Source: Chloroflexi bacterium B3_Chlor
GTDB taxonomy: Bacteria; Chloroflexota; Anaerolineae; UBA7937; B3-Chlor
Direction of reading: 5' to 3'
Length of the DNA: 64,000 nucleotides
NCBI GenBank assembly: GCA_005223035.1
Contig: NJBK01000004.1
Span: forward strand, 40,577 to 104,576
This document shows positions 1 through 32,222 of the stretch, in pieces; position 1 is the first letter of the stretch, and every line of letters begins with the position of its first letter. Under the pieces are notes generated by a model, which saw only the letters and a program-made list of their open reading frames with translations, had not been told where the DNA came from and ran no database searches. Both the position numbers and the translations under genes were made by a program.

Positions 1-395
1 CCTTCGAGCTGGCCTAGGGTTCGCCAGATGCGTTGGACATGGGGTTAGGGGCCTGAATCTGAGCCCCTAACCCCCCATAGCCGACAGATCCAAAACGCGC
101 GGGGTCAAACATAGTGACCTCATTCAGTGCCGAGGCCAGCGTTCCGCCCGGTGATCGTACGTCCTCTGTCTAGCGCTTGATCACCGTCATTGAGCATGCT
201 CGTCACGACCAGATGGGCGCTGGTGTAGCCTGGAGCGTCGCTGGCAGACGAAATCTAGGTAGATGGCCCGGCCAAGGTGGGGATGAGACGTTGGTCAGTA
301 TGCAGTCGCTGCTGTTCAAGGCCGAGGTGGGTCAACGTTCAGCTGGCCGATGCGTACAATTGAGGGCACGAGCATGAGGAAAGGAGGTTGACAGA

Positions 396-818
396 ATGAG
401 CCCAAGGGCAAGAAAAGACAAGGACATAGAGAGTGGAGTAGAGGAGACCACGGTGGCCACCAAGATGGAAGCTGCGGCCGAGACGTCGGAAAAAGCCGCT
501 GGGGTGGACGCCGCGGGAGAGGGAGAGGAAGAGTCAAAGGCCAAGACGGACACCGTAGCGGCGGGTGAGAAGAAGGCTGGCAAGAAGCGTGCCAAGAAAG
601 TGAACCTCAAGTCTCTGGCCAGGAACCTGTATCAGATGGGACTGGACCTCGGTCTGCCACCCGATGAGGCTGCTCTTCTGACAAGCGAGACGAAGCTTCC
701 CGCCTTTGTCAATCAGGAGGCCGAAGAGGAGTTCAAGGAGGGGTTGATCGAAGGCTATCAAGAAATGCTCAATGAGCGTGTGCAAAACCTCAAGCACCAA
801 CTGGGTGTTGGCGGCTAG
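396..818 (+). CDS. small acidic/lysine-rich protein ending in Gly-Gly (candidate ligatable tag or substrate)
   Basis: ATG at 396 is preceded by AAGGAGG (383-387) with an 8-nt spacer. The ORF is 140 aa. The N-terminal ~70 aa are low-complexity E/A/K-rich; the C-terminal half looks helical and ends ...NLKHQLGVGG followed by TAG. Confidence 0.5.
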   Translation: MSPRARKDKDIESGVEETTVATKMEAAAETSEKAAGVDAAGEGEEESKAKTDTVAAGEKKAGKKRAKKVNLKSLARNLYQMGLDLGLPPDEAALLTSETKLPAFVNQEAEEEFKEGLIEGYQEMLNERVQNLKHQLGVGG

Positions 819-860
819 GACGGCAGTTTGGCGCTGTGAGCCGGTTGAGCGAACGGTGAG

Positions 861-2150
861 ATGAAAGAGCCCATCCTCTTTCGTCGCGATGACACCCTGA
901 CCCACGAGCAGGCCATGTACTGGAAAGACCTGCTGTACCGCACGGTCAAGATTGGCACCGAGGTGGAGTTCGCCCTGCCCAAGGGGGTTCAGAAGAAGGA
1001 CTTCATGCCTCTTCTGGTGGAGGCGCTGCTGCCCACGCAAGATCTCTCCAACCTTGGCCCCCTGGGCGTGTACGAAGTAGTTGATGAGCATTGTGGCCTG
1101 GAGATCCAGGTCATCGGCCGCCAGCCGTATTATACGGCCCTCATTGACCAGTACTACCGCCTCTTTGCCACCTTACCCAAGGGCATCCGTGCTCGGCCCA
1201 CCTGTGGACTGCACTACCACGTACTGACCATTGGCCTGTCGGAGCCGGTGCCGGACATCATCCTGGCCAACGTTTGGAATCTGACCCGCCGCTATGCTCC
1301 CTATCTAAGATTCCTGACCAGCGCCGGAGACAAGCCCGAAGCCCTGTGCCGTCGCCGCAACTACAACTCACACCTGGAGATGGTCAAACTGACTCCGTTT
1401 CCGATGACCATGGCCGAGATTCAGCAACGGCTGCGTGACAGCCGGGCGGTGCCGGAGCACAACAACTTCCTCAACCTGGAGAACATCGTTTTCAACGAGG
1501 ATGGTTCCATCAAGGTCTTTCACTACGAGAATCGCTTCCCCGATGCCGACCTGACGCCGACCTCGATTGTGGCCAAGATTTTCATGTTCCTGGCCATTCT
1601 GCTCAAGGCGGTGGAGATGAGCCAGTACGGGGTGATTCATGTGGGGCGCATCAACGAGTGGCGGCGTAAGGTGGAACTTCTCCATCTGTTGAGCAACAAC
1701 TCCGGCAATCTGGCTACCAGCGACACCAGCGGAGTGACGGAGGAGGTGATTGAGGAATTGCGGGCGGGGTGCCGGGAGATGTTGGACTTGACAAAACCGG
1801 TGTTCGCGCGCTTTGAGAGCAATCCCAGCTTTGAGGTGCTTTCTCTGTTGGCCGAGACGCCCATCTCGCTGCTGCGGGCCAGCGGGCGCGACTGGGATGA
1901 GATCGAGGATCTGTTGGCGGAGAGGGCGGCGATGGAGGCGGGAGCGCTGGATAAGACCGACCACTCGCTGATCAGGTGCATCGAGTTGGCGGAGTTGGGG
2001 GAGCAACCCACTCTGGAAGCGTGGAAGTGGGCCGTAGCGTGGGACTTACGGCTGACCCCCCAGGAGTTAGAGCGCCGACTGGAGCGCCTGGAGCGCCTGC
2101 GTCGAGTGCAGTGGGACGGGGATCTGGGGACGATCATCTTTTTGACTTGA
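861..2150 (+). CDS. carboxylate-amine ligase superfamily protein (glutamine synthetase / GCS2-like amidoligase)
   Basis: 429 aa. Carries the ordered motifs IGTEVEFAL (ExE strand), GLHYHV (HxH) and GSIKVFHYENR (ExR) that mark the GS/GCS2/Amidoligase_2 fold. Lies 42 nt downstream of the Gly-Gly protein gene. Confidence 0.6.
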   Translation: MKEPILFRRDDTLTHEQAMYWKDLLYRTVKIGTEVEFALPKGVQKKDFMPLLVEALLPTQDLSNLGPLGVYEVVDEHCGLEIQVIGRQPYYTALIDQYYRLFATLPKGIRARPTCGLHYHVLTIGLSEPVPDIILANVWNLTRRYAPYLRFLTSAGDKPEALCRRRNYNSHLEMVKLTPFPMTMAEIQQRLRDSRAVPEHNNFLNLENIVFNEDGSIKVFHYENRFPDADLTPTSIVAKIFMFLAILLKAVEMSQYGVIHVGRINEWRRKVELLHLLSNNSGNLATSDTSGVTEEVIEELRAGCREMLDLTKPVFARFESNPSFEVLSLLAETPISLLRASGRDWDEIEDLLAERAAMEAGALDKTDHSLIRCIELAELGEQPTLEAWKWAVAWDLRLTPQELERRLERLERLRRVQWDGDLGTIIFLT

Positions 2151-2176
2151 AGGACTAGAGAAGAGGACTGGAGAAG

Positions 2177-2995
2177 ATGTGTGGTCTGGCAGGAGTTCTG
2201 CTGTGTCCAGGCGAACGGACAGTCGAGCAGTGGCAGCGCCTAAGAGAAGCCTTTACCCAGAACCTGGTGTCCAACGAAGAAAGAGGGCGAGAGGCGGCGG
2301 GAGTGGCCCTTGTCCGGCGAGACGGCACTTATGAGTTGTTCAAAGAGCCGGTGCGGGCCTCGGAGTTGGTGAGGGCGCAGGGGTACCAGCGGATCATGTC
2401 GTTGTTGGACGGCGAGACAGTATCTCTGCTGGGCCATGCCCGGCTGCCGACAAAGGGCAGTCCCTGGAACAACACCAATAATCACCCGTTGATGGTGGGA
2501 CACATAGTTGGTGTCCATAATGGGATGATCTTCAACGACGACGAACTCTTTGGCACCTTCGGGTTCCCTCGGCTGGGGGAAGTGGATAGCGAGGTGCTGT
2601 TCTGGCTGCTGAACAGCGTCCATCCCTTGAACAACGATGGCAATTACCTGAGCCTGGTGGGCAGACGGATGGAGATGGTGCAGGGGACGTTTGCGCTGAT
2701 GGCGGTGGACCTGCGCCGACCGACCGCTCTGGTCGTGGTTAGAGGCATGATGCCGCTGTGTTTGCACTACGAGAAGTCGCTGAATGCGCTGTTCTTCTCC
2801 TCGCGCTATGTGTTTCTGCGCAAGCTCTTCGGTGACGCGGTGATGACCGAATTCGTGGAGCCGCAGCAGGTTTCCTACTTCGATGCCGGGCATCTGCTTG
2901 AGAGGCAGGACCATCCGTTTTGTTCGGTCAAGTTCGCCCTCGGTTCTTGGCGGCGAAGAATAGAGGAAGAGAGGACAGAGGGCTCAAGAGTGTAA
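2177..2995 (+). CDS. class II (Ntn, N-terminal Cys) glutamine amidotransferase-like amidohydrolase
   Basis: Starts MCGLAGVLL, so Cys becomes the N-terminal nucleophile once Met is removed. Stand-alone 272 aa GATase-2-type domain, 26 nt after the ligase gene. Confidence 0.7.
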   Translation: MCGLAGVLLCPGERTVEQWQRLREAFTQNLVSNEERGREAAGVALVRRDGTYELFKEPVRASELVRAQGYQRIMSLLDGETVSLLGHARLPTKGSPWNNTNNHPLMVGHIVGVHNGMIFNDDELFGTFGFPRLGEVDSEVLFWLLNSVHPLNNDGNYLSLVGRRMEMVQGTFALMAVDLRRPTALVVVRGMMPLCLHYEKSLNALFFSSRYVFLRKLFGDAVMTEFVEPQQVSYFDAGHLLERQDHPFCSVKFALGSWRRRIEEERTEGSRV

Positions 2996-3073
2996 GGATC
3001 GGCGGCCCCAGTCTCCCTGCTGCGGTCCAGCGGGAGTTCGGCGTCGCGAGGGGCAAAATGGAGGAAGAGGAGT

Positions 3074-3373
3074 ATGGCAGCCATGAGTGGTCGTCGTCAG
3101 CTCCGCTCTGTTGAGGTCCAGAACCCGTGGCACAGCGGGTCGGAGTCGGTGGAGACGCTCGAACGACGAGACGGTCACTTTCCGCACTTGTTTCTCTGGC
3201 GGGGACGGGAGTATGAGGTGCAGGCGGTGGAGCGATGCTGGACCATCTGCCGCCGTGAGCAGGGAAACCGCGTGGAAGGCTATTGCTTCCGTCTCCGTTG
3301 CCAAGAGGGTACCTTTTACCTGTTCGAGGACGCGCGGGCTGGAACCTGGCACATGCGGCGACGGGTGCGGTGA
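3074..3373 (+). CDS. hypothetical protein (99 aa)
   Basis: ORF with a purine-rich SD (GGAGGAAGAGGAG) just upstream of ATG 3074. No recognisable domain. Confidence 0.3.
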   Translation: MAAMSGRRQLRSVEVQNPWHSGSESVETLERRDGHFPHLFLWRGREYEVQAVERCWTICRREQGNRVEGYCFRLRCQEGTFYLFEDARAGTWHMRRRVR

Positions 3374-3627
3374 GGACCCAATTCGTTCGGCCTTAGAAGA
3401 TATCGTAATTCGAAGCCCGGCATCCAGTCGATGGGGAAGAGCCGCCGCCTGTGCTCTCTCAAACTCGCTATCGATTTCTGGGAGCGAAGGACAAAGTGCC
3501 ACGTGGTCGCTGAGGACGAAGGTGCAAGGATTGAGCGGGGATCAATTGCTGGAGCCAGTGACATGCGTCTTGTGGCTGTAGACACCGTTTGGCAAATCTG
3601 GTCACTGACTTGATGGGGATAGGAACC

Positions 3628-3999
3628 ATGAAGGAAGAACGGAGAAGAACCGCCCGTGTCCTCGTTGAGCATCTGGTATCTTATGTTGTCTTGGACGAGC
3701 GGGGAGGAACGGACGAGATGGGCATGGCGCGCACCCTGGACCTGAGTGAGGGAGGCATCGTGTTGGAGATGACGCATTCCCTTGATAGGGGCTCCCACCT
3801 TGAGATGAAGATGGTCAGTGGTGATCATATCCTGGAAGCCAGAGGGCTGGTTGTGTACAGCAAGTACCTACCTGACTACTTACCTGACAACCGTTGGCGC
3901 GTGGGCGTGTCCTTCACCGAGATCACTGAGGGCGATCTGGCCACAATCGCTCAGGAGGTTGAAGAGCGTCGTATGCAGGAGACCAGGGGAGATGCCTGA
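3628..3999 (+). CDS. PilZ domain c-di-GMP-binding protein
   Basis: N-terminal RxxxR motif (MKEERRRTARV) and the D-x-S-x-G-G motif (DLSEGG) diagnostic of PilZ. Alternative ATG at 3613; the ORF track starts at TTG 3589. The stop overlaps the next gene's ATG (ATGCCTGA). Confidence 0.7.
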   Translation: MKEERRRTARVLVEHLVSYVVLDERGGTDEMGMARTLDLSEGGIVLEMTHSLDRGSHLEMKMVSGDHILEARGLVVYSKYLPDYLPDNRWRVGVSFTEITEGDLATIAQEVEERRMQETRGDA

Positions 4000-4507
4000 G
4001 CAGAGAGTGAGTTTCAATGAGGAGCAACTTGAGAGGATGGAGGCCTGTCTTGAGAATCTGCTGACCAAGAGCAAAGGGGTGGCGGTTCTATTCGCCAGCG
4101 CCGAAGGTCAGCCATTTGGACAGGTGGGCAGCCTCAGTGATAAGGACAGGATGGCGCTATCCACCTTGGCTGCGGGTAGCTTCGCGGCCACTGTGGCCAT
4201 GGCCAAGTTGTTGGGACAGGCTGGAGCATTCCAGCAACTCTTCTTTGAGGGCCAGGAGCACAGTGTCTACTCCTCGGCTGTGGGTGAAGGGTCCCTTCTT
4301 ACCATCGCCTTCGGCAGCAGCGCAAAGCCTGGCTTGGTGAGACTCCTGGCCCGGGAAGCCACAAACGAGCTACTGGAGATCGTACGCGAGGCCCGGGAGC
4401 AAGGGATGGAACAGTCTGTTGAGGACCTAATACACGCTGAGTTCGGCGAGTCTTTGGCCGACGAACTGGATGCCCTATTCCCGGAGGGAGGGGAAGGTAT
4501 CGAGTAA
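3992..4507 (+). CDS. Roadblock/LC7 (MglB-like) domain protein
   Basis: MPEQRVSF start overlaps the PilZ stop. Roadblock-type alpha/beta core (GVAVLFASAEGQPFG...AAGSFAATVAMAK). Confidence 0.65.
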   Translation: MPEQRVSFNEEQLERMEACLENLLTKSKGVAVLFASAEGQPFGQVGSLSDKDRMALSTLAAGSFAATVAMAKLLGQAGAFQQLFFEGQEHSVYSSAVGEGSLLTIAFGSSAKPGLVRLLAREATNELLEIVREAREQGMEQSVEDLIHAEFGESLADELDALFPEGGEGIE

Positions 4508-4530: not shown

Positions 4531-4905
4531 ATGGCTGACGGTATCGACCGGCTGTTAGAGGAAACTCTGCGGGGGTTGCGACGGGTTTCGCCGTATGTGG
4601 TAGGTTCGGCGGTGGTTACGGGCGATGGATTTGTGGTCGCCTCTGAGCTACCCGATGAGAACTACGAGAAGAAGGTGACGGTGATGGCCATGGCCATGCT
4701 GACCATGGGGCAGGAGGCTACTGGTGAATTGGGTTCCAGCGATGTGGAGCGGGTCTTGGTGGAGAGCAAGGATAGCTACATCGTGATGGTCAACGCTGGC
4801 CCTGGCGCAATTCTGGCCGCTGTTGCGGAAAAGGAGATCATCTTGGGTCTGCTCTTTGTGGCCATCAAGGAGACAGTGGCCAAAGTCAACACACTGCTGT
4901 ACTGA
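4531..4905 (+). CDS. Roadblock/LC7 domain protein
   Basis: 124 aa. VVTGDGFVVAS...AMAMLTMGQEA pattern typical of Roadblock/LC7. Confidence 0.7.
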   Translation: MADGIDRLLEETLRGLRRVSPYVVGSAVVTGDGFVVASELPDENYEKKVTVMAMAMLTMGQEATGELGSSDVERVLVESKDSYIVMVNAGPGAILAAVAEKEIILGLLFVAIKETVAKVNTLLY

Positions 4906-4918
4906 GGTAAGAGGCCAT

Positions 4919-5329
4919 ATGATGGACGAGAGACCTGAAGGAGCTACGCGTACAGGCGAACCCACTCTAAACCGGATCTTGCGAGAGATGAACGATGAGG
5001 GGCATTTCAAAGCATCGGTCTTGGTCAGCACCGAGGGGTTGCCCCTCTCGTCCGCGTCTTCGCCCTTTGATACTGAAACAATGGCGGCTATGGTAGCCCT
5101 GGTCAAGAACACGATCCAGCAGGCCAGGGAGCATATCGGGTTGGATGAGATAGACGAGGTCTCCATCGTTCAAGGTGACAAGATGCGCCTGATATGCCGG
5201 TACCTCGTCGTCGGGGACGAAGAATTGATACTGTCTGTTATCGCCCCACCTCATCAGACCTACCGGCGCCTGACTAACCGGGCTCTTAGGGAGATCAAGC
5301 GCGTCTGGAGAAGGATCTACGTAGCTTAA
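4919..5329 (+). CDS. Roadblock/LC7 domain protein
   Basis: Starts at internal ATG (MMDERPE). ASVLVSTEGLPLSS...TMAAMVALVKN is Roadblock-like and paralogous to 8110-8493. Confidence 0.65.
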   Translation: MMDERPEGATRTGEPTLNRILREMNDEGHFKASVLVSTEGLPLSSASSPFDTETMAAMVALVKNTIQQAREHIGLDEIDEVSIVQGDKMRLICRYLVVGDEELILSVIAPPHQTYRRLTNRALREIKRVWRRIYVA

Positions 5330-5685: not shown

Positions 5686-7644
5686 GTGGACGAGCATTCA
5701 TCCACGTTGGATTTCCAGAAGGTGATAGAGCTGGTGCTCGACAAGGCGATGCAGGCCACAGATGCCTCGGCAGGGGCCATTGCCGTAGCTAACGAGGAGA
5801 GAACCGGGCTTCTCTTGCTCGCGCACCGGGGTTACCCTGGCCAGGCGGATGCCAAGAGACCCTGGCGGTGGCGCATCGGGACGGGAATAGTGGGAAGGGT
5901 AGTCAAAACGGGTGAACTCTCCCTGGTAAACGATGTCAGCCAAGACCCTGACTACGATGACTTTGTCCCGGAGACCCAGTCTCAACTCACTGTGCCCATC
6001 ATTAGAGAAAATGAGGTGGATGGGGCCATAGTCCTGGAGAGCCCCCGGCTGGCAGGTTTCAGTAGAGGGCAGACAGGCTTCGTTCAGCATCTGGCGGAGC
6101 ATGCGGCCGTGGTCATGGGCAACGCACGGTTGAGTCAGCGACTGATGGAGTCGGAGGAGAGATACCGCATCTACGTGGAGAACGTCCCCTGTGTCATCTG
6201 GGAGGCGGATACCGAGAGTCGCTTCACCTACTGCAGCCCTCAGATCGAGAAGTTGATAGGCTACACTGCTGAAGAACTAGTCGGACACACTCCATACGAG
6301 TTCTTGATACACGCCGATGACGCTGACAAGTTCAAAAAGAGAGTTCGCCAGATGTCAAGAGAAGGAAGAGACGAATACACCTTGCGCCACCGGGCATTGC
6401 ATAGAGATGGTTCCATCCTGCATATCGAGGTAGGCATCAAGCCGGTGTGGGATGACGCTGGCCGGGTGGTCAAGTATCGAGGCGCGGCGCGAGATGTGTC
6501 GCAGCTGGTTGAACTCCAGGCGCAACTCATCCAGTTGGCCAAGCTGTCGGGTATCGGCCAGATGATCTGTGGCGTGGCCCACGAACTGAACAACACTCTG
6601 ACTACGGTCATGGGATACTCGCAACTCCTCCAAGTCACCGATGTGGATGAGGACGTCAAGGAGGACTTGCAGAGGATCTATGACGATGCCTTGCGAGCGC
6701 AACGCATCGTGCAGAACCTCCTCACCTACGCCCGTCAGAAGAAGCCAGAGCACGGGCCGGTAGACATCAATGAAGTCATCGAACACACCCTGGCTCTCAG
6801 GAGGTATCAACTGAAGGTGGACGACGTGGAGGTCGTCACGGAACTGGCCGAGAACTTGCCCTGGACCATGGCCGACAGCTATCGACTGCAGCAGGTCTTT
6901 CTGAACATCACCAACAACGCCCACCAGGCAATCCTCCAGATGGGTAAGGGCGCCTTGACCGTAAGGAGCGAACTCCTGGGTGACGATACTATCCGCGTAA
7001 CCTTTGCCGATACCGGGCCGGGTATACCGCCAGAGGTACTGGACAAGATCTTCGATCCCTTCTTCACCACCAAAGATGTGGGCGCGGGCACCGGGTTGGG
7101 ATTGTCGGTCTCTCACGACATCATTCAGGAGCACGGCGGACGCATCTGGGCTGAGAGCGAGCCAGGCCAGGGAGCGACTTTCATTGTCGAGTTGCCCGTG
7201 AAAAGCTGGCTGCGGGACATAAGTGTACCTTCTCTTGATGAGGAGTATGAGGGGCTACCCTCCAAGAGGCAGAGGATATTGGTGGTGGATGATGAGCAGA
7301 ACATCGTGGACCTGATAGTGGAGGTGTTGAAGGACAGTGGGTATCTGGCTGATGGCGTCACCAGTGCCGAGCTAGCCCTGAGGCTGCTGCACCAGCACAG
7401 GTATGACCTGATCATCTCCGATGTCAAGATGCCCGGCATGGACGGCCCTACCTGCGAGAAAGAAGTGAGGGCGATGGATCCAGAGTTGGCTGAACGGATC
7501 ATCTTCGTCACCGGTGACCTCCTGAGCCCCACTACACAGGCGTTCCTGGAGGAACGGGGGGGACCGTGTCTCGAGAAGCCCTTCGAACTGGAGGAGTTGG
7601 CGAGCCTGCTGAGGAGGGCGCTGAGCGACGATGAGGAGCGCTAG
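5686..7644 (+). CDS. hybrid sensor histidine kinase (GAF-PAS-HisKA-HATPase_c-REC)
   Basis: H-box HELNNTLTTVMGYSQLL, G2 box GTGLGLSVSHDIIQEHGGRIWAESEPGQGATF, C-terminal receiver domain (RILVVDDEQNIV...DLIISDVKMPGMDG). Confidence 0.85.
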   Translation: MDEHSSTLDFQKVIELVLDKAMQATDASAGAIAVANEERTGLLLLAHRGYPGQADAKRPWRWRIGTGIVGRVVKTGELSLVNDVSQDPDYDDFVPETQSQLTVPIIRENEVDGAIVLESPRLAGFSRGQTGFVQHLAEHAAVVMGNARLSQRLMESEERYRIYVENVPCVIWEADTESRFTYCSPQIEKLIGYTAEELVGHTPYEFLIHADDADKFKKRVRQMSREGRDEYTLRHRALHRDGSILHIEVGIKPVWDDAGRVVKYRGAARDVSQLVELQAQLIQLAKLSGIGQMICGVAHELNNTLTTVMGYSQLLQVTDVDEDVKEDLQRIYDDALRAQRIVQNLLTYARQKKPEHGPVDINEVIEHTLALRRYQLKVDDVEVVTELAENLPWTMADSYRLQQVFLNITNNAHQAILQMGKGALTVRSELLGDDTIRVTFADTGPGIPPEVLDKIFDPFFTTKDVGAGTGLGLSVSHDIIQEHGGRIWAESEPGQGATFIVELPVKSWLRDISVPSLDEEYEGLPSKRQRILVVDDEQNIVDLIVEVLKDSGYLADGVTSAELALRLLHQHRYDLIISDVKMPGMDGPTCEKEVRAMDPELAERIIFVTGDLLSPTTQAFLEERGGPCLEKPFELEELASLLRRALSDDEER

Positions 7645-8109
7645 CTGCTCCTCCTTCGGGAATCGAGGGCCAGTTGCCCGAACAGCCTCGGCGACGCGGT
7701 GGCAAGAGGTAGTGTGATCTGGTCGGAGTGTCCCCGTAACTGCAAGGCATCCTTTCATTGGACAAACAGCACGGGAAAGGAGACATAGCATCGCCGAGAG
7801 AGATGTGGCGGACAACGCGTGTTGTGTCTCTATCAGAGTGTACTGATTGTAGCTCTCGGGCGATCCAAGGCTCATCGGACCGCTTTGTGATGCTTGAACC
7901 GCCGTTGAGATTGAAGCGCCCCATACTGCAGAACGCAGACGATGATCCAAGTGCGGCTCGGCGGTACCTCGTGGCGGAACTAGAGGACAGGCAGATAGGC
8001 CGGCAACGAAAGACGAGGACGGAGCCACCTTTCTCATAGCTCCGCGACGAAGGTGATGAGGTGCGCTGGCAAAGTTTGTGCCCGGGTGCCGGCTACTCAA
8101 GTTTGCAGG

Positions 8110-8493
8110 CTATGATCCTTCGACCATAGCGTGCCAGGCCAGCTTGAGATCCTTGATAGCTCGGTTGGTCAGTTGTCTATAGTAGCGTCGGTGGCTGGGC
8201 ACCACAACGGCCAGGATGAAATCCTCACCGTTCATGGTGAAGCAGCGGCAGACCAGCCGTATGTGATCGCTGGCCCTGACAGAGACCTCGTCAACCTGGG
8301 CCAATCCGACATGCTCCCGTGTCTCTCGTGCCACACGTCTCAGCAGGGCGACCATTGCAGATGTGGTATCAACGTCATAGTCGGAGGGCACTGTGGCGAT
8401 GGGTAGGCCATCACTGCTTGCGAGCACCGAAGCCTCGAAGTCACCTTCTTCGTTTATCCGCTCCAAAGCCTTTTCGAGAGGTCTGTCTGCCAT
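8110..8493 (-). CDS. Roadblock/LC7 domain protein
   Basis: 127 aa Roadblock-like (ASVLASSDGLPIAT...TSAMVALLRRV). Sits 5 nt after mglA on the minus strand. Confidence 0.7.
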   Translation of the reverse strand: MADRPLEKALERINEEGDFEASVLASSDGLPIATVPSDYDVDTTSAMVALLRRVARETREHVGLAQVDEVSVRASDHIRLVCRCFTMNGEDFILAVVVPSHRRYYRQLTNRAIKDLKLAWHAMVEGS

Positions 8494-8497
8494 TGGG

Positions 8498-9070
8498 CTA
8501 GATTCTGGATACCACCAGGTTGATTGCTGCTTTCAAGGTCTCTATCACCCCTACCCCCTCTGTCGCCACAGACTGGAACTGAGGGACGCCGTCGCGGGCC
8601 AGCTGCATCTGCAGAAGTGCAACGGGGGCTCTCGTTGGCAGATCTCGCTTGTTGTACTGCAGAACGAGGGGAAAATCGTGAAGACTCACCCCCAGTGCCC
8701 GCAGGTTCTCCTCCAGGCTGCGCATGGTGTCCATGTTTGCCTTGAGCCTATTGAGTTGAGAGTCGGCCACATAGACCACCCCGTCCGCACCCTGCAGAAC
8801 AAGTCTTCGGCTGGCCACATAGCATGGCTGGCCCGGCACAGTATAGAGATTGAACTTGGGCTTAAGTCCTCGGATTCGCCCCAGTTCCAATTGCATAAAA
8901 TCGAAGTACAAAGTGCGATCACCTCTGGTCTTGAGGCATATTAGCTCTCCTCTCTGCCTGGGATTGGTCCTGGAGTGAATGCACTGCAAGTTGGTGGTCT
9001 TGCCGCTGAGAGATGGGCCATAATACACAATCTTGAGGTTGATCTCACGCATTTTCCAGTTGATGAACAT
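8498..9070 (-). CDS. mglA: MglA-type Ras-like small GTPase
   Basis: P-loop GPSLSGKTT. Collinear full-length near-identity, from memory, to Myxococcus MglA: FINWKMREINLKIVYYGP, DRTLYFDF, YTVPGQ, VVYVADSQ, LQYNKRDLP. Confidence 0.9.
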   Translation of the reverse strand: MFINWKMREINLKIVYYGPSLSGKTTNLQCIHSRTNPRQRGELICLKTRGDRTLYFDFMQLELGRIRGLKPKFNLYTVPGQPCYVASRRLVLQGADGVVYVADSQLNRLKANMDTMRSLEENLRALGVSLHDFPLVLQYNKRDLPTRAPVALLQMQLARDGVPQFQSVATEGVGVIETLKAAINLVVSRI

Positions 9071-9106
9071 GGTGCCCCCTACGAAAAATGCGGTGATCCC
9101 TCTCTA

Positions 9107-9589
9107 TCAAGCAAAGGCCTCATCTAGCCCCTGAGCCAGTGCGCCGCGAAACTCTCGGTCCACCACGGCGCTGGCCTTCTCCAGCCACGGTTCCAGCTCG
9201 GAGGCCACTTCAAGGAGTTCGTTGACTGCCAGTCTGGCGAAGATGCGCACCAAGCCGATTTGCGTCATCTCATCAAAGATGATAGCCAGCAAGAAACTCG
9301 CACCAATGGCAGAGATGTAGATGTGACGTCTCTGTCCCTCGTGGAAGAGGTAGGAGAATGGGGCTGGCTCGTCCAACTGTCTGGCTATCTCGGCGGTAGC
9401 AGCCATGTTGCTGGCGGTCAGCGCGGCGAGAGCGGACGTATCCAACCCCTCGTTGTTTCCTTTCTCACTGATCAGCTGTCCGCTAATGTCCGCCAACAGG
9501 ACGCACAGGGCCCTACTTCTATTGAGCAACCTGTCGAGACAGTTCTCTATCTTGATAAAGGGCTCACGAGGGGGGATCAGAGTTTCCAT
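9107..9589 (-). CDS. mglB: MglB-type Roadblock/LC7 GTPase-activating protein
   Basis: Immediately upstream of mglA on the same strand. Shows the GQLIS, D-TSALAALTASNMAA, FHEG and GLVR blocks seen in MglB. Confidence 0.8.
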   Translation of the reverse strand: METLIPPREPFIKIENCLDRLLNRSRALCVLLADISGQLISEKGNNEGLDTSALAALTASNMAATAEIARQLDEPAPFSYLFHEGQRRHIYISAIGASFLLAIIFDEMTQIGLVRIFARLAVNELLEVASELEPWLEKASAVVDREFRGALAQGLDEAFA

Positions 9590-9615
9590 CTTCCGTTTTC
9601 CTCATCAGTGGCTTC

Positions 9616-10782
9616 CTACTCTTCAGGCAAATCGTACCAGCGTCTAGCCTCGCCAATCCTGGCCCTTGCCTGCCAGCGCAGGGACTTTGGTGCAGCCTCG
9701 ATGATCTCACTCAGCTGACGGGCCCTTGAGACATAGACTTCCTTCTCCCGCGCCGGGAGGAAATCATCTACCAGGTCGATGCTTTTCTCAATGTTCAAAG
9801 TAACGGTCCTATACCAACCCCAGTCGTCGCCGCACGTGGAGGCGATGAAGTCTGCGTCCACCTTATGTACATTGTCTCCTTTGCCCAACTCGTGATCGTA
9901 GAGAATGGCGTAGATGTCCCTCAAATCTTTCTCTCCCATCTGCACGATCTGCAGTTTCGACAAGAGCAAATCTGCCAATGGAAGGGTGATCTCGTGCAGC
10001 TCGAGGCGGTTGGTGAAGGACAGTTGGTGACACATATGAAAGGTGTCCACAAATACATCCAAGGCGACACCTTCTTGGGGATCTGAATACTTCAAGCGTT
10101 TATGTCCATGGAAGGCGTTGAAGCGGCGGTGGGGTTCGTATCCCAGAGTCTCTATCACTTCCTCCAACCCTCGCCGTTGCCTACCATATACGGCAAGATC
10201 AAGATCAAGCCCATCAGGCGGCAAGGTCATGTCAGCGGCGCTGGGACAGATCGCCTTGACGGCTATGCCTCCCAAGAGGCGCAAATGGACGCCTCGATTC
10301 TCAGCAGCAGCGATGGCCTGGCGGGCACGAGTAAGTAGCAGGTCGGCGGCATCGGCCGGGAGTTCCGGCTCAATCACGGCCACCTCTTCAGCCGCCGCTG
10401 GAGGAGCGCTTGGGACCGGGGCCTCTCTTTCTTTCAGGATTTCAGAGAGCTTCCTCGCAGCCACGTTGGCGGTGAGGTTCAGAAGAGGGACATTTACAGT
10501 ACGCACGCAGAGGATATAGAGGCAGCCAACACGCAAATTCTTGACCACCATCCTCCCTTCTCCGAATACCAGATCCAACTCGTGGACCCTGCGCCGCCTT
10601 GTGGTCTCCAGTCCGTCGATGGTTTGCAGAATCGTGCGTGCTGCTGGCAAGAACGTGGCCTCATCGAAGACAGACGGCAGAGCACGGGCCACTAACCTGC
10701 CTTCGGGGTCGCAAACGAACGATCCGGTTACCCCCACGACGGCATTGATGTCCTGCAGTATCTTTTCCATGGTCGCCCCCAA
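9616..10782 (-). CDS. Roadblock/LC7 domain fused to a pol-beta-superfamily nucleotidyltransferase (NTP_transf_5-like) domain
   Basis: N-terminal ~120 aa are Roadblock-like (INAVVGVTGSFVCDPEGRLVARAL). The C-terminal part carries LRLLGGIAVKAICPSAADMTLPPDGLDLDLAVY...LGYEP, matching the hG[GS]...DhDh nucleotidyltransferase signature. Confidence 0.6.
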   Translation of the reverse strand: MGATMEKILQDINAVVGVTGSFVCDPEGRLVARALPSVFDEATFLPAARTILQTIDGLETTRRRRVHELDLVFGEGRMVVKNLRVGCLYILCVRTVNVPLLNLTANVAARKLSEILKEREAPVPSAPPAAAEEVAVIEPELPADAADLLLTRARQAIAAAENRGVHLRLLGGIAVKAICPSAADMTLPPDGLDLDLAVYGRQRRGLEEVIETLGYEPHRRFNAFHGHKRLKYSDPQEGVALDVFVDTFHMCHQLSFTNRLELHEITLPLADLLLSKLQIVQMGEKDLRDIYAILYDHELGKGDNVHKVDADFIASTCGDDWGWYRTVTLNIEKSIDLVDDFLPAREKEVYVSRARQLSEIIEAAPKSLRWQARARIGEARRWYDLPEE

Positions 10783-10786
10783 GGAA

Positions 10787-11476
10787 CTAGCCCAAGATCG
10801 TGGCCGCTTCGGCGCTAACCAGGGCCGGTGAAGCTTTCTCGCTCAACGACAAACCTGCAAAAAAGGCTGGCCGTTCTAGGATAAGCATTCTGTCTTTACC
10901 CATGGTAACCAGCCCCCAGTCAAAGGGCGTGAGACTCATGGCATTCCCGAACTCGGCGGCCGCATTGCCCACGAAAACGGCCACAGCGCCCTCCTTTTCC
11001 GGGTTGCCGTCAATGTCACTTGCGAAAACGATGCCATCGCGTGAGATGATGACTGATCCCTCGACGCCCATTACGTTCTTGAGTTCGTGAGCCAGAGTCG
11101 CCATCTCATCCGCAGCTGCCGGCAATTCCATCGCAGGTGCAACCTCTGCCGGTCGCTCAACCGAAGCTTGCTCTTCGTCCATGCGGCGTATTCCCTCCAG
11201 AAGGAGGCTGTTCCAGCTGGTGGAGACCGTTCTCTCGGACGGTATTGTACCGGCCTCCACAACGAAGGAGCCATCGGGCCAGCTCAGGAGTTCGTAGACA
11301 GCCTCTTCACCCACCACATCCCCCACCGCGGCATGAACGATGGCTCCGTCGGCGAAACAGATGATTCCCGTCTTGCCCTGGTACGTCAGAGACACCGTGG
11401 CGGTGTTCATCTCGGTACAATTAATCTGAATTATGTTCGTGAGGCCTAGCTCTTTGAGGCTTCCTTCAACAGGCAC
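10787..11476 (-). CDS. DUF4388 (PATAN-type) domain fused to a Roadblock/LC7 domain
   Basis: The N-terminus GSLKELGLTNIIQ...GKTGIICFADGAIVHA...GEEAVYELLSWPDGSFVV matches the DUF4388 consensus. The C-terminal ~110 aa are Roadblock-like (VEGSVIISRDGIVFAS). Confidence 0.6.
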   Translation of the reverse strand: MPVEGSLKELGLTNIIQINCTEMNTATVSLTYQGKTGIICFADGAIVHAAVGDVVGEEAVYELLSWPDGSFVVEAGTIPSERTVSTSWNSLLLEGIRRMDEEQASVERPAEVAPAMELPAAADEMATLAHELKNVMGVEGSVIISRDGIVFASDIDGNPEKEGAVAVFVGNAAAEFGNAMSLTPFDWGLVTMGKDRMLILERPAFFAGLSLSEKASPALVSAEAATILG

Positions 11477-12082
11477 TTACGTCTTCCTTTCCTTGGGCTG
11501 CTGTCGACTTCTCTTGCGCCAGCGCATCAGGTCTCCTTTTTGCGGTTCACCCGATCTCCGACTCTGCATCGGGGGCCGGCTCCTTTCCTCGAAGACGTCG
11601 TCCAGCTCCTTACTCAGAGACGCCGCAAAGTCGGAAGCAAGGGTCTCTCTAGGCTTGGTGGTTTCTGTCTCGGCGACGATGCGCAAGAGATCCTGGATGC
11701 TTCTCTTGATGTAGAGCCAGACCATACCGATCTTTGGTGCATATGTTTGCCTGTCGAAAACGAGGACTAGAAAGAGACCGCTGGCGATGTTGGAGGCGTA
11801 TATGTCGTATCGTTCGCCTTCGTGGAACGTAAGGTTGAAGGTTCTACGTGTCTCATTCAGCTGACGTGACATCTCGGAGGTCGTGGCGAAGCTGGCAGCC
11901 AAGAGGGAGACGATGGTGGTGATGTCCAAGTTCGCAGCACTCCCGGCCTGCGCGATGATCTGACCCATCGTATCCACCATAACCACGGCGGCAGCGTCAG
12001 CTTCGACAAGAAGCTCTCTTAGTCTTCTGGTAATGGCCTCCAGATATTCGCCTGAAAGAGATGAAACCCTTTTCTGCGCCAT
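11477..12082 (-). CDS. Roadblock/LC7 domain protein with basic C-terminal tail
   Basis: AAVVMVDTMGQIIAQAG...TTIVSLLAASFATTSE is Roadblock-like. First gene after the internal promoter at 12223-12251. Confidence 0.6.
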   Translation of the reverse strand: MAQKRVSSLSGEYLEAITRRLRELLVEADAAAVVMVDTMGQIIAQAGSAANLDITTIVSLLAASFATTSEMSRQLNETRRTFNLTFHEGERYDIYASNIASGLFLVLVFDRQTYAPKIGMVWLYIKRSIQDLLRIVAETETTKPRETLASDFAASLSKELDDVFEERSRPPMQSRRSGEPQKGDLMRWRKRSRQQPKERKT

Positions 12083-12222
12083 CTGCTTGTCTCCGCGGTA
12101 GATCGGAGGACGAAAAAGCCAGCCTTGTTTTCTTCAGCCCGACCCGAGCTGACCACTCAATTCGCTGCTCCCCCGGCAGCACATGGCATGCGGTCGCTTG
12201 AATCTGAGGGCTTCCAAACCAC

Positions 12223-31532: not shown

Positions 31533-32222
31533 ATGGCTGTGAACAACCGGTCGGACAGTCTGGTCACTCTTACCACACCCCGCTCCCCCATCAGCGAAGC
31601 ATATCGCACGTTGCGCACCAACCTCGAGTTTTCCAGCTTGGACAAACCCATAAAGACGATAGTGGTAACTTCTCCCGGGCCCGAGGAGGGAAAATCAACG
31701 ACCTTGGCCAATCTGGCCGTCACGCTGGCTCGGGCCGAGAAAGAGGTCATCTTGGTGGATTGCGACTTGAGGCGACCTTCGCAGCATGAGATCTTCGGCG
31801 TGCACAACGGGGTCGGCCTCACCACCATGGTCGTAGACGATGAGGCTATGGCTGATCCCCCTCTCCAAGAGACGAGCGTCTCGGGGTTGTGGCTCTTACC
31901 GAGTGGCCCTCTTCCTCCTAACCCATCAGAGCTGGTAGGCTCCCGTCGTATGAAGGAGATCATAGCTGTCTTGTCCCAACGAGCAGACATCGTCTTGTTC
32001 GATGCCCCGCCGATCATTGCTGTAACGGATGCTGCCGTCCTGTCCTCCGAGGTGGACGGGGTGTTGATGGTCATCAACGCCGGAGGTACCAAGCGAGATC
32101 ATGCCCAGAAGGCGAAGGCCTTGCTGGACAAGGTGAACGCCCATCTTGTGGGAGCGGTTCTCAACAATGTGAAGATAGACACCAGTCTACATAGGTACTA
32201 TGCTGAGCAAAAGGGCGGCTAA
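31533..32222 (+). CDS. tyrosine-protein kinase, CpsD/CapB BY-kinase
   Basis: Walker A SPGPEEGKSTT, A-prime VDCDLRRP, Walker B VLFDAPP, C-terminal Tyr-rich tail RYYAEQ. Confidence 0.8.
   Translation: MAVNNRSDSLVTLTTPRSPISEAYRTLRTNLEFSSLDKPIKTIVVTSPGPEEGKSTTLANLAVTLARAEKEVILVDCDLRRPSQHEIFGVHNGVGLTTMVVDDEAMADPPLQETSVSGLWLLPSGPLPPNPSELVGSRRMKEIIAVLSQRADIVLFDAPPIIAVTDAAVLSSEVDGVLMVINAGGTKRDHAQKAKALLDKVNAHLVGAVLNNVKIDTSLHRYYAEQKGG

Follow-up and report, generated by a model that had tools for sequence, protein, structure and literature searches.

A predicted carboxylate-amine ligase and Ntn amidohydrolase form a conserved gene pair in small-GTPase signalling clusters of Chloroflexota and other bacteria

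Locus and gene content

The window analysed was a 64,000-nucleotide stretch of the genome of Chloroflexi bacterium B3_Chlor, near the start of which lie three tightly spaced genes, referred to below as gene 1, gene 2, and gene 3. As had been described in the original prediction, all three are encoded on the + strand, and reading of the ORFs gave intergenic gaps of 42 and 26 nt. Neither an Rfam family nor a convincing promoter or terminator was found in positions 1-4000 of the window. The features of the region, with the basis for each in parentheses, are as follows.

1..17, + strand: probable 3' end of an RdxA_C-type small-protein gene, the rest of which is truncated by the window edge (...FELA-stop)
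396..818, + strand: gene 1, a lineage-restricted accessory ORF of 140 aa ending LGVGG-stop (ORF and homologues)
861..2150, + strand: gene 2, a carboxylate-amine ligase of 429 aa, predicted to be ATP-dependent (fold model, motifs, and profile comparison)
2177..2995, + strand: gene 3, a predicted stand-alone Cys1 Ntn (class II glutamine amidotransferase-type) amidohydrolase of 272 aa, starting MCG (GATase_6)
3589..3999, + strand: PilZ-domain protein (Pfam PilZ, 39.3 bits)
3983..4507, start approximate, + strand: Roadblock/LC7-domain gene (Pfam Robl_LC7, 37 bits)
4531..4905, start approximate, + strand: Roadblock/LC7-domain gene (Pfam Robl_LC7, 52.3 bits)
4823..5329, start approximate, + strand: Roadblock/LC7-domain gene (Pfam Robl_LC7, 26.5 bits)
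5686..7644, + strand: hybrid histidine kinase, GAF-PAS-HisKA-HATPase-REC (Pfam)
8110..8493, - strand: Roadblock gene (Pfam)
8498..9070, - strand: MglA/Arf-like small GTPase (Pfam)
9107..9589, - strand: Roadblock gene (Pfam)
10787..11476, - strand: PATAN (DUF4388/PatA_N)-Roadblock protein (Pfam DUF4388, 75.2 bits; Robl_LC7, 20.2 bits)

A PilZ gene was also found in the equivalent position at a related locus (L004).

The ligase family

Gene 2 carries the motifs E34-x-E36, H118-x-H120, and E223-x-R225, a series that had been read originally as that of the glutamine synthetase (GS)-type carboxylate-amine ligases. Conservation was assessed in 58 diverse family members sharing 20-60% identity. Residues E34, E36, E81, H118, E223, and R225 were invariant in this set, including five of the six residues of the series (all but H120), and H120, R164, H221, and D228 were kept in at least 90% of the members. 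The conserved residues are presumably the metal- and phosphate-binding ExE, HxH, and ExR residues of glutamine synthetase. In the AF2 model they are located on strands 30-38, 79-87, 116-122, and 221-224, and fold comparison of the model identified the GS/GCL carboxylate-amine ligase fold, with GCL/YbdK as the nearest structures at an identity of 12-14%. Fold and retained motif residues together bear out the superfamily assignment. A helical region and approximately 170 extra C-terminal residues with a winged-helix domain were also present. The final model was built on the 58 diverse members and replaced an earlier, poor AF2 model based on 27 close homologues (pLDDT 65.8), which already pointed to GCL/YbdK/PafA.

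Direct searches of Pfam, NCBIfam, PHROGs, PADLOC, and PDB sequences, performed with the single protein and with the 58 members or their profile, returned no match for gene 2. The Amidoligase_2 model (PF12224) did not match the window protein at E values up to 1 or any of the 58 members at E values up to 0.01, and neither gene 2 nor the 58 members matched the GCS2 and Pup_ligase families of Pfam. A relationship was detected using hhalign: comparison of the gene 2 family profile with gp98 of phage Salgado, which itself scores 122.9 bits to PF12224, gave a probability of 94.8% with an E value of 5.3e-8 over 243 columns, which include the ExE, G-x-E, CG-x-H-x-H, and E-x-R motifs and span the whole catalytic core. 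The controls, E. coli YbdK and a phage COOH-NH2_lig protein, gave 0.4% and 0.5%, respectively. The gene 2 family is a deep, unannotated branch of the GS/GCL superfamily that is nearest to Amidoligase_2 by sequence; its similarity to YbdK/GCS2, as judged from the model, is structural only. From the modelled fold, gene 2 is predicted to form amide bonds in an ATP-dependent manner.

The identity of gene 2 to its 120 best homologues, which are mostly from Anaerolineae/Chloroflexota, was 66-80%, which makes the ligase one of the most conserved proteins of these clusters. Every named homologue in the searched databases was annotated as 'hypothetical protein', and none had a Pfam domain. Family members of 520-600 aa were considered as possible fusions of the ligase with an RdxA_C-type protein, and this was rejected; the extra sequence is a Cys-rich insertion of approximately 100 aa.

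The hydrolase

The product of gene 3 matched GATase_6 with 47.5 bits (cut-off 27) and the N-terminal domain of GlmS with an E value of 2e-17, and its best family matches were the true amidotransferases GlmS and PurF. Its best PHROG match was a phage glutamine amidotransferase family (E value 3.6e-20). The identification of the Met-Cys-Gly start with the nucleophile of the class II Ntn enzymes held up, as 74 of 76 homologues began with MCG[L/I], which places the Cys nucleophile directly after the initiator Met. The family also conserves the motifs R..PT.G, HNG, and VDSE, whose aligned counterparts in E. coli GlmS (1xff) are R73, N98-G99, and D123, residues that we take to hold the alpha-carboxylate, the oxyanion, and the alpha-amino group of glutamine. 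Since these glutamine-site residues are kept, the enzyme is expected to act on glutamine or on a gamma-glutamyl amide whose alpha end is free. Judged from its sequence, gene 3 is a stand-alone Cys1 Ntn hydrolase that retains all of the glutamine-binding residues. At one locus (L092), the gene 3 homologue is fused to a Roadblock domain. The intact glutamine pocket would suit a plain glutaminase equally well.

Gene 1 and its Gly-Gly terminus

Gene 1 had been described as a largely low-complexity protein. This applies to residues 1-67, an acidic, A/K/E-rich stretch of variable length, and not to residues 68-140, which form a conserved C-terminal domain of approximately 70 aa with 20 invariant positions in 28 sequences. 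Family-profile and PDB searches with gene 1 gave no match. A decayed duplicate of the RdxA_C-type gene was considered and rejected, as hhalign found no relation.

The terminal LGVGG is present in the sequence as predicted, and it is not conserved: a C-terminal Gly-Gly occurs in only 2 of the 28 aligned sequences. The other homologues end in LGVG, LGVD, LGVA, LGVS, LGVGA, DG, or longer tails, the species-level relatives end in MDI and GIED, and the closest orthologue, from a locus where the ligases are 97% identical, ends in Gly-Ala. Of the mechanical ORFs that reach 100 aa, approximately 1% end in Gly-Gly, and a second such ORF lies within the window (31533..32222); by itself, the Gly-Gly end of gene 1 is unremarkable. 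Of 71 ligase loci at species level, 2 carried gene 1, and its homologues fall into 28 protein clusters as compared with 454 for gene 2; on these two counts, the ligase is without gene 1 in approximately 95% of loci. At one locus (L005), where the ligase is 80% identical, gene 1 is a 47-aa remnant beside full-length ligase and hydrolase ORFs. Comparison of gene 1 with its closest orthologue identified 3 synonymous and 12 non-synonymous codon changes. On the contigs examined, gene 1 homologues are flanked by the RdxA_C gene and the ligase gene and share the strand of the ligase. Gene 1 is a fast-evolving, lineage-specific accessory in an operon slot, and its Gly-Gly end is incidental.

The conserved gene unit

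Synteny was examined in a sample of 80 species-representative loci, with denominators of 71, 75, or 53 depending on the feature. The conserved order was RdxA_C-type protein (156 aa), ligase (gene 2), and hydrolase (gene 3). An RdxA_C-type gene was present upstream of the ligase in 69 of 71 species-level loci, and a gene 3 homologue was present downstream in 65 of 75, a linkage far beyond chance, with the two enzyme genes adjacent or overlapping in most loci. The 10 of 75 loci with no adjacent gene 3 indicate that the ligase can stand without a cis-encoded hydrolase. The synteny that had been proposed for a three-gene cassette therefore holds for genes 2 and 3 and fails for gene 1, and the functional unit consists of the RdxA_C-type protein, gene 2, and gene 3 rather than genes 1, 2, and 3.

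The arrangement spans Chloroflexota, Cyanobacteria, Acidobacteriota, KSB1, WOR-3, Caldithrix, Fibrobacterota, and Chloroherpetonaceae. The unit is surrounded by genes for MglA-like GTPases, Roadblock proteins, PATAN proteins, and response regulators; an MglA-like GTPase homologue was located at most 8 kb from the ligase in 44 of 53 loci, and in relatives a PatA_N-Robl gene lies directly upstream of the RdxA_C gene. In the relatives examined, the neighbours within the conserved core were signalling proteins, and metabolic or transport genes were not seen there. The enzymes of genes 2 and 3 constitute a conserved pair in small-GTPase signalling clusters of Chloroflexota and other bacteria. The basis of the link between the pair and GTPase signalling is gene order together with one fusion.

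In the window, the upstream partner is represented by nt 1-17 (ccttcgagctggcctag), which code for ...FELA-stop. Because this end fits the C-terminal ...FEL-x pattern of RdxA_C-type proteins, the conserved partner that belongs upstream of the ligase appears to be an RdxA_C-type gene of which the window holds only the end; an RdxA_C gene is found at the equivalent place in the closest relative (L011). The RdxA_C-type protein had no match in PDB, NCBIfam, or a copy of Pfam without PF27323, all named homologues among those listed were 'hypothetical', and a literature search on RdxA returned only unrelated papers on rdxA of Helicobacter and Campylobacter. We suspect that it may be a V4R/Bet3-like protein. 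The C-termini of RdxA_C-type proteins are variable and neither Gln/Glu- nor Gly-Gly-like.

Proposed function and alternative explanations

The reading that we favour, tentatively and at a little short of an even chance, is that one enzyme of the pair forms, and the other cleaves, a gamma-glutamyl-type amide that provides an input to the GTPase module. Gene 2 would activate a carboxylate with ATP as an acyl-phosphate and couple it to an amine. The carboxylate would most likely be the gamma-carboxylate of glutamate, because glutamate is used by the nearest structural neighbours (12-14% identity). Gene 3 would then hydrolyse the resulting gamma-glutamyl-type amide or a derivative of it, so that the two enzymes would act as a make/break (write/erase) pair and the GTPase/Roadblock switch would be regulated through the amide. 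The acceptor may be a cluster protein, modified at a lysine or at its N-terminus, for which the RdxA_C-type protein is the foremost candidate; alternatively, it may be a small amine, whose gamma-glutamyl adduct would be sensed by the ligand-binding domains of the cluster. A narrower version, in which the RdxA_C-type protein or another component of the cluster carries a gamma-glutamyl or short aminoacyl mark, attached to a lysine or to its N-terminus, and this mark gates a Ras-like GTPase/Roadblock polarity switch, is speculative and, in our estimate, rather unlikely. By sequence, the gene 2 family is closer to Amidoligase_2, the substrates of which are unknown, than to its glutamate-using structural neighbours.

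Glutamine-dependent amidation was considered as an alternative. By analogy with asparagine synthetase B and the MurT/GatD pair, gene 3 would act as a glutaminase that passes ammonia to gene 2, which would amidate the acyl-phosphate-activated carboxylate of a metabolite or protein. Retention by gene 3 of every glutamine-binding and catalytic residue of the GlmS-type glutaminase domains, its best family matches to true amidotransferases, and the adjacency or overlap of the two genes are all consistent with this scheme. However, the class II glutaminase domains known to channel ammonia form one polypeptide with their synthase, and the known stand-alone proteins of approximately 260 aa (EgtC, YafJ-type) are hydrolases. 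No fusion of gene 2 with gene 3 was found among the 150 family representatives listed, the longest of which has 597 aa, and the lack of gene 3 at 10 of 75 loci also counts against this scheme. Amidation is considered an unlikely explanation.

Peptide or protein tagging as by PafA/Dop, in which the tag would not be gene 1, was considered less probable still. Gene 2 would join two cluster proteins through a carboxylate of one (the RdxA_C-type protein, for example) and a lysine of the other, and gene 3 would be a thiol peptidase by which the tag is processed or removed; Iyer et al. 2009 reportedly predicted such tagging for pairs of Amidoligase_2 and GAT-like peptidases. The families compared do not favour it, since no Pup_ligase or Pup family match was obtained. 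In the PafA/Dop/Pup system, the cleaving enzyme is the paralogue Dop, whereas here it would be an Ntn cysteine hydrolase with a pocket that looks suited to a free glutamyl alpha end and not to a peptide chain. No conserved GGQ/GGE tail like that of Pup is present, the C-termini of the RdxA_C-type proteins vary, and proteasome, Mpa, or unfoldase genes were not found nearby in relatives.

An ordinary metabolic gamma-glutamyl pathway, placed beside signalling genes by chance, appears very doubtful. In cycles of the EgtA/EgtC and PuuA/PuuD types, a gamma-glutamyl amide is produced by a ligase of the GS superfamily, and its glutamyl group is split off in a later step by an amidotransferase-type hydrolase. 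The same ligase-then-hydrolase logic would apply here, EgtC is also a stand-alone class II Cys1 enzyme, and both the proximity of the gene 2 model to GCL/YbdK and a weak EgtC match of gene 3 can be cited in support. The EgtA/EgtC-like pathway of the original prediction is a fair analogy, but membership is contradicted by the EgtC model (TIGR03442), which scored 18 bits against a cut-off of 218.65. None of the neighbouring genes examined was of the EgtB/EgtD type or a polyamine gene, and transporter or further catabolic genes were not found in the conserved cluster core. The signalling genes on either side have been kept together with the pair in different phyla, and in one lineage gene 3 is fused to a Roadblock domain.

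The conjugation system proposed originally, in which gene 1 would be a ubiquitin- or Pup-like tag, gene 2 would ligate its Gly-Gly carboxylate, and gene 3 would take the tag off again, has in its favour the Gly-Gly end in this genome and the position of gene 1 homologues directly upstream of the ligase, and is dismissed as extremely improbable in view of the ends of the orthologues (Gly, Asp, Ala, Ser, Ile, or tails), the occurrence of the gene in so few ligase loci, the remnant at L005, and the 12 non-synonymous against 3 synonymous changes. The lack of a conserved Gly-Gly in the orthologues is a finding that the original prediction had itself named as refuting. ThiF/E1, Pup_ligase, proteasome, and AAA unfoldase families, the dedicated machinery of such systems, were found neither in gene 2 nor among the neighbours at the examined loci. 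Because gene 1 is lineage-specific and its Gly-Gly end is not conserved, the locus is not a ubiquitin-like tagging system.

Comparison with known systems

Pairs of Amidoligase_2 and class II amidotransferase genes occur in phages and bacteria in the same order as genes 2 and 3. The Amidoligase_2 gene of Arthrobacter phage Salgado is gene 98, and the next one, gene 99, encodes a GATase_6 protein. LUZ24-like phages carry both an amidoligase and an amidotransferase (PMC3890496). No function was given for the phage pair in the literature found. Since such pairs are known from phages, the pair described here is not wholly new in kind. It differs in that gene 2 is below detection by PF12224 and has the C-terminal extension with a winged helix, and in that the genes are chromosomal, vertically conserved, and associated not with phage early genes but with those for RdxA_C, GTPase, Roadblock, and PATAN proteins. 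Gene 2 is likewise distinct from the glutamate-cysteine ligases (GCS2/YbdK) in its low identity, the lack of a GCS2 Pfam match, and the hhalign result for YbdK.

The surroundings, with an MglA/Arf-like GTPase, Roadblock/LC7 proteins, and PATAN-Roadblock proteins, are the same as those of MglA/MglB-type GTPase modules with PATAN proteins. The association of GTPase, Roadblock, and PATAN proteins has been described in a paper that does not mention amidotransferases (PMC4316618), and our literature search found no paper linking an amidoligase to MglA/Roadblock/PATAN modules. A Klebsiella 'amidoligase' paper that was retrieved concerns an ATP-grasp enzyme and is irrelevant. The original suggestion that the architecture was undescribed can be kept for the signalling-cluster context and for the ligase family, both absent from the literature found, but not for the pair as such, which is annotated in phages.

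Significance

A negative lesson of this analysis is that a Gly-Gly end on a low-complexity protein encoded beside a ligase is insufficient to call a tagging system. Placement of gene 2 in the GS/GCL-Amidoligase_2 superfamily leads to a testable chemistry, namely ATP-dependent amide formation coupled with a gamma-glutamyl-type hydrolase. The pair also suggests that MglA/Roadblock/PATAN modules receive an enzymatic input, one that the GTPase literature found does not mention, and an identified product would also illuminate the amidoligase/amidotransferase pairs of phages. If the write/erase mark proves real, small-GTPase signalling in Chloroflexota, Cyanobacteria, and other phyla would be under the control of a new kind of reversible post-translational modification, and a first function would be assigned to a widespread, uncharacterised amidoligase/GAT-II gene pair.

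Gene organization and the 140-aa protein

Three plus-strand ORFs, separated by 42 nt (gene 1 to gene 2) and 26 nt (gene 2 to gene 3), were present with the lengths and ends that the original prediction had described:

396..818, + strand, gene 1: 140 aa, ends LGVGG-stop
861..2150, + strand, gene 2: ligase, 429 aa
2177..2995, + strand, gene 3: Ntn hydrolase, 272 aa, Met-Cys-Gly start

A GGAGG was located 8 nt ahead of the gene 1 start, and the gene 1 product was a 100% match to CEE40_01940 of the Chloroflexi bacterium B3_Chlor MAG. Of the original prediction, one reading of which has the Gly-Gly end of gene 1 coupled by gene 2 and removed by gene 3, the observation was partly confirmed; the enzymology (a ligase with an Ntn amidohydrolase) was right, and the conjugation tag was not.

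Gene 1 had 28 homologues, which occupied the same slot as in the window where contigs were examined. In their alignment the N-terminal half was acidic and varied between sequences, and some 70 aa towards the C-terminus formed a conserved domain. The LGVGG end was found in 2 of the 28; the majority ended LGVG, and the remainder LGVD, LGVA, LGVS, LGVGA, LGMDG or in longer tails. The orthologue in the closest relative (locus L011) ended LGVGA, a species-level relative (L012) ended ...QMDI, and in locus L005 a 47-aa remnant ending ...GIED lay beside full-length ligase and hydrolase ORFs. Relative to L011, gene 1 carried 3 synonymous and 12 non-synonymous codon changes, and the ligase 22 and 12, respectively. 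Gly-Gly ends occurred on approximately 1% of mechanical ORFs; the only other window ORF of at least 100 aa with this end (31533..32222, + strand) serves as a baseline only. The gene 1 domain was found in 2 of 71 loci of the species-representative set. Gene 1 is not a conserved member of the ligase/hydrolase unit, the tagging account is wrong, and the cassette is not the ubiquitin-like system proposed. Orthologues without a conserved Gly-Gly end are an outcome that the original prediction had itself named as refuting it.

Two further arrangements were observed near gene 1. A HEPN/nucleotidyltransferase toxin-antitoxin pair (L005 7210..7905 and L006 327..1022, both - strand) is inserted between the 47-aa remnant and the ligase gene, whose product is 80% identical. 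A hexapeptide-repeat (left-handed beta-helix) transferase gene (L005 6312..6935; L092 5281..5904, + strand) lies between the RdxA_C-type gene, described below, and gene 1 in the gene 1-bearing sub-clade.

The ligase and hydrolase families

The gene 2 protein had no match in Pfam, NCBIfam, PHROG or PDB sequences, and the sole PADLOC hit (E 0.031) was not significant; 58 diverse family members (20-60% identity) and their profile likewise matched no ligase family or structure. Homologues were abundant and conserved to a striking degree: they formed 454 clusters, and among the best 120 of these (66-97% identity, 429-451 aa) every named protein was 'hypothetical' and none had a precomputed Pfam domain, in annotation that extends to families as new as PF27323. 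When 1.8 billion representatives were searched exhaustively by HMM, 243 clusters were returned. The family profile aligned over 243 columns to an Amidoligase_2 protein from Arthrobacter phage Salgado (122.9 bits to PF12224), with 94.8% probability and E 5e-8, and this stretch takes in the motifs ExE, G-x-E, CG-x-H-x-H and E-x-R; profile comparisons with E. coli YbdK and a phage COOH-NH2_lig protein gave 0.4% and 0.5%. Residues E34, E36, G79, E81, H118, N137, E223, R225 and P334 were invariant in the 58 members. The fold and the conserved motif residues are established, and gene 2 is accordingly annotated as a putative carboxylate-amine ligase that looks catalytically intact; the original prediction, made from the motifs, was right on this point. 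The family branches deeply, with Amidoligase_2 as its nearest neighbour, and bears an extra helical/winged-helix region at the C-terminus. In the inspected members of one sub-branch (P0177, P0179, P0182, P0184, P0185, P0189 and P0191; 520-570 aa), about 100 inserted residues, rich in Cys, separate the ExE strand from the DGSL...G-x-E strand and may bind metal as a module.

Gene 3 encodes a class II (Ntn) glutamine amidotransferase-type domain, which stands alone in the window with no fused partner. It matched Pfam GATase_6 (47.5 bits, cut-off 27), the GlmS N-terminal domain (2e-17) and a phage 'glutamine amidotransferase' PHROG (3.6e-20), while EgtC reached no more than 1.4e-3 (18 bits, cut-off 218.65). 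An MCG[L/I] start was found in 74 of 76 homologues from related loci, across which R..PT.G, HNG and VDSE were kept; these motifs align onto R73, N98-G99 and D123 in the glutaminase domain of E. coli GlmS (1xff), residues that hold the glutamine alpha-carboxylate, oxyanion and alpha-amino group. This glutamine-type pocket would need a free alpha-amino group and alpha-carboxylate, and fits glutamine, gamma-glutamyl-amines or gamma-glutamyl-lysine, not a Gly-Gly isopeptide. In one lineage (L092 8370..9650, + strand) a 426-aa protein combines the gene 3 homologue with a Roadblock/LC7 domain, and both GATase_6 (51.8 bits) and Robl_LC7 (29.6 bits) exceed their Pfam cut-offs. The fusion ties the hydrolase to the module of GTPase regulators.

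Genomic context

A set of 80 species-representative loci was fetched with the ligase profile, ORFs were called, and iterative HMM searches were seeded with the window and its relatives. An RdxA_C-type gene was located upstream on the same strand in 67 of 71 loci (69 counting two masked by an over-long ORF call), gene 3 downstream of the ligase in 65 of 75, and an MglA/Arf-like GTPase within 8 kb in 44 of 53. The usual order was REC-OmpR-type regulator, REC(-Roadblock), Roadblock, GTPase, PATAN-Roadblock, RdxA_C (often duplicated), ligase and hydrolase, followed in relatives by Roadblock/GTPase, REC-GAF or PilZ genes. In the window, gene 3 is followed by a DUF6504 ORF, a PilZ protein, three Roadblock proteins and a hybrid histidine kinase, and the opposite strand carries Roadblock, GTPase, Roadblock and PATAN-Roadblock genes. 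Core neighbours were signalling proteins, and no metabolic or transport genes were found in the conserved cluster core of the relatives examined. Carriers were chiefly Chloroflexota (Anaerolineae, Caldilineae, Ardenticatenia, Thermoflexia), together with cyanobacteria (Leptolyngbya, Coleofasciculus, Microcystaceae, Gloeocapsa) and MAGs labelled Acidobacteriota, KSB1, WOR-3, Caldithrix, Fibrobacterota and Chloroherpetonaceae.

The DUF6504 ORF (3074..3373, + strand, 99 aa; 27.8 bits, cut-off 24.2) is directly 3' of gene 3, and its counterpart follows gene 3 in L011. A 387-aa ORF between the Roadblock and PATAN-Roadblock genes (9616..10782, - strand) had a weak, sub-threshold NTP_transf_5 match (21.8 bits, cut-off 31.2). 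Locus L030 (about 7800..12100) holds two ligase-hydrolase pairs, head to head on opposite strands, near which no RdxA_C-type gene was detected. Among the few synteny-breaking loci, the isolate genome of Coleofasciculus sp. LEGE 07092 (L048 1961..3253) encodes a 57% identical ligase adjoining neither an RdxA_C-type gene nor gene 3.

In 7 relatives, the called gene upstream of the ligase encoded a 155-158-aa protein with PF27323 (RdxA_C), separated from the ligase in one of them by the toxin-antitoxin insertion. The family (156 aa, 613 clusters; for example L001 7424..7894) has an almost invariant N-terminus, MA[TS][ED][ED]xK[KQ], an invariant MEKEMGLEIAGE-like motif and two conserved cysteines, and tandem duplication is common. 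No structure or function was found for it, and the origin of the Pfam name is untraced. It did not align with gene 1. Since nt 1-17 of the window (...FELA-stop) fit the family's C-terminal pattern, the window appears to open on the 3' tail of an RdxA_C-type gene; L011, with a 97% identical ligase, has gene 1 between RdxA_C and the ligase gene, and the hydrolase gene comes last.

Proposed function

Phage annotation already includes the pairing of Amidoligase_2 with a neighbouring class II amidotransferase. In Salgado, gene 98 (amidoligase) and gene 99 (amidotransferase) match the order of genes 2 and 3, and in Vibrio phage 1.262.O a GATase type 2 protein adjoins a COOH-NH2 ligase. Iyer et al. 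(2009) and the Pfam note on PF12224 reportedly made the prediction that pairs of this kind act as peptide ligase and thiol peptidase. In LUZ24-like phages, Amidoligase_2 and GATase_6 occur together with an ATP-grasp enzyme (PMC3890496). The MglA-MglB-PATAN association has been described, with no mention of an amidotransferase (PMC4316618), and a literature search joining amidoligase with Roadblock, MglA, PATAN or small GTPase found no linking paper. The amidoligase-Ntn hydrolase pairing is already known; new are a divergent, unannotated amidoligase family with a winged-helix region and the recruitment of the pair to a small-GTPase signalling cluster, alongside an uncharacterised small protein.

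We tentatively favour, at somewhat short of even odds, a make/break device, given the signalling neighbours and the lack of metabolic or transport genes in the core. The ligase would form an acyl-phosphate on a carboxylate and couple it to an amine, the hydrolase would cleave the gamma-glutamyl-type amide, and this regulatory amide would act on the GTPase/Roadblock module. The acceptor could be a protein or a small amine; if a protein, the RdxA_C-type protein is the obvious candidate, given its near-invariant N-terminus and two conserved cysteines. Glutamine-dependent amidation with gene 3 as glutaminase, for which the pocket would be suited, is unlikely. PafA/Dop-like protein-protein tagging that uses another cluster protein is less probable again. 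Slightly more doubtful still is an unrelated metabolic gamma-glutamyl pathway. Gene 1 as the tag, with its unconserved end, retains almost no probability. Within bacterial clusters of Ras-like GTPase genes, the cassette forms an enzymatic module, conserved and so far unexplained, whose chemistry is directly testable.
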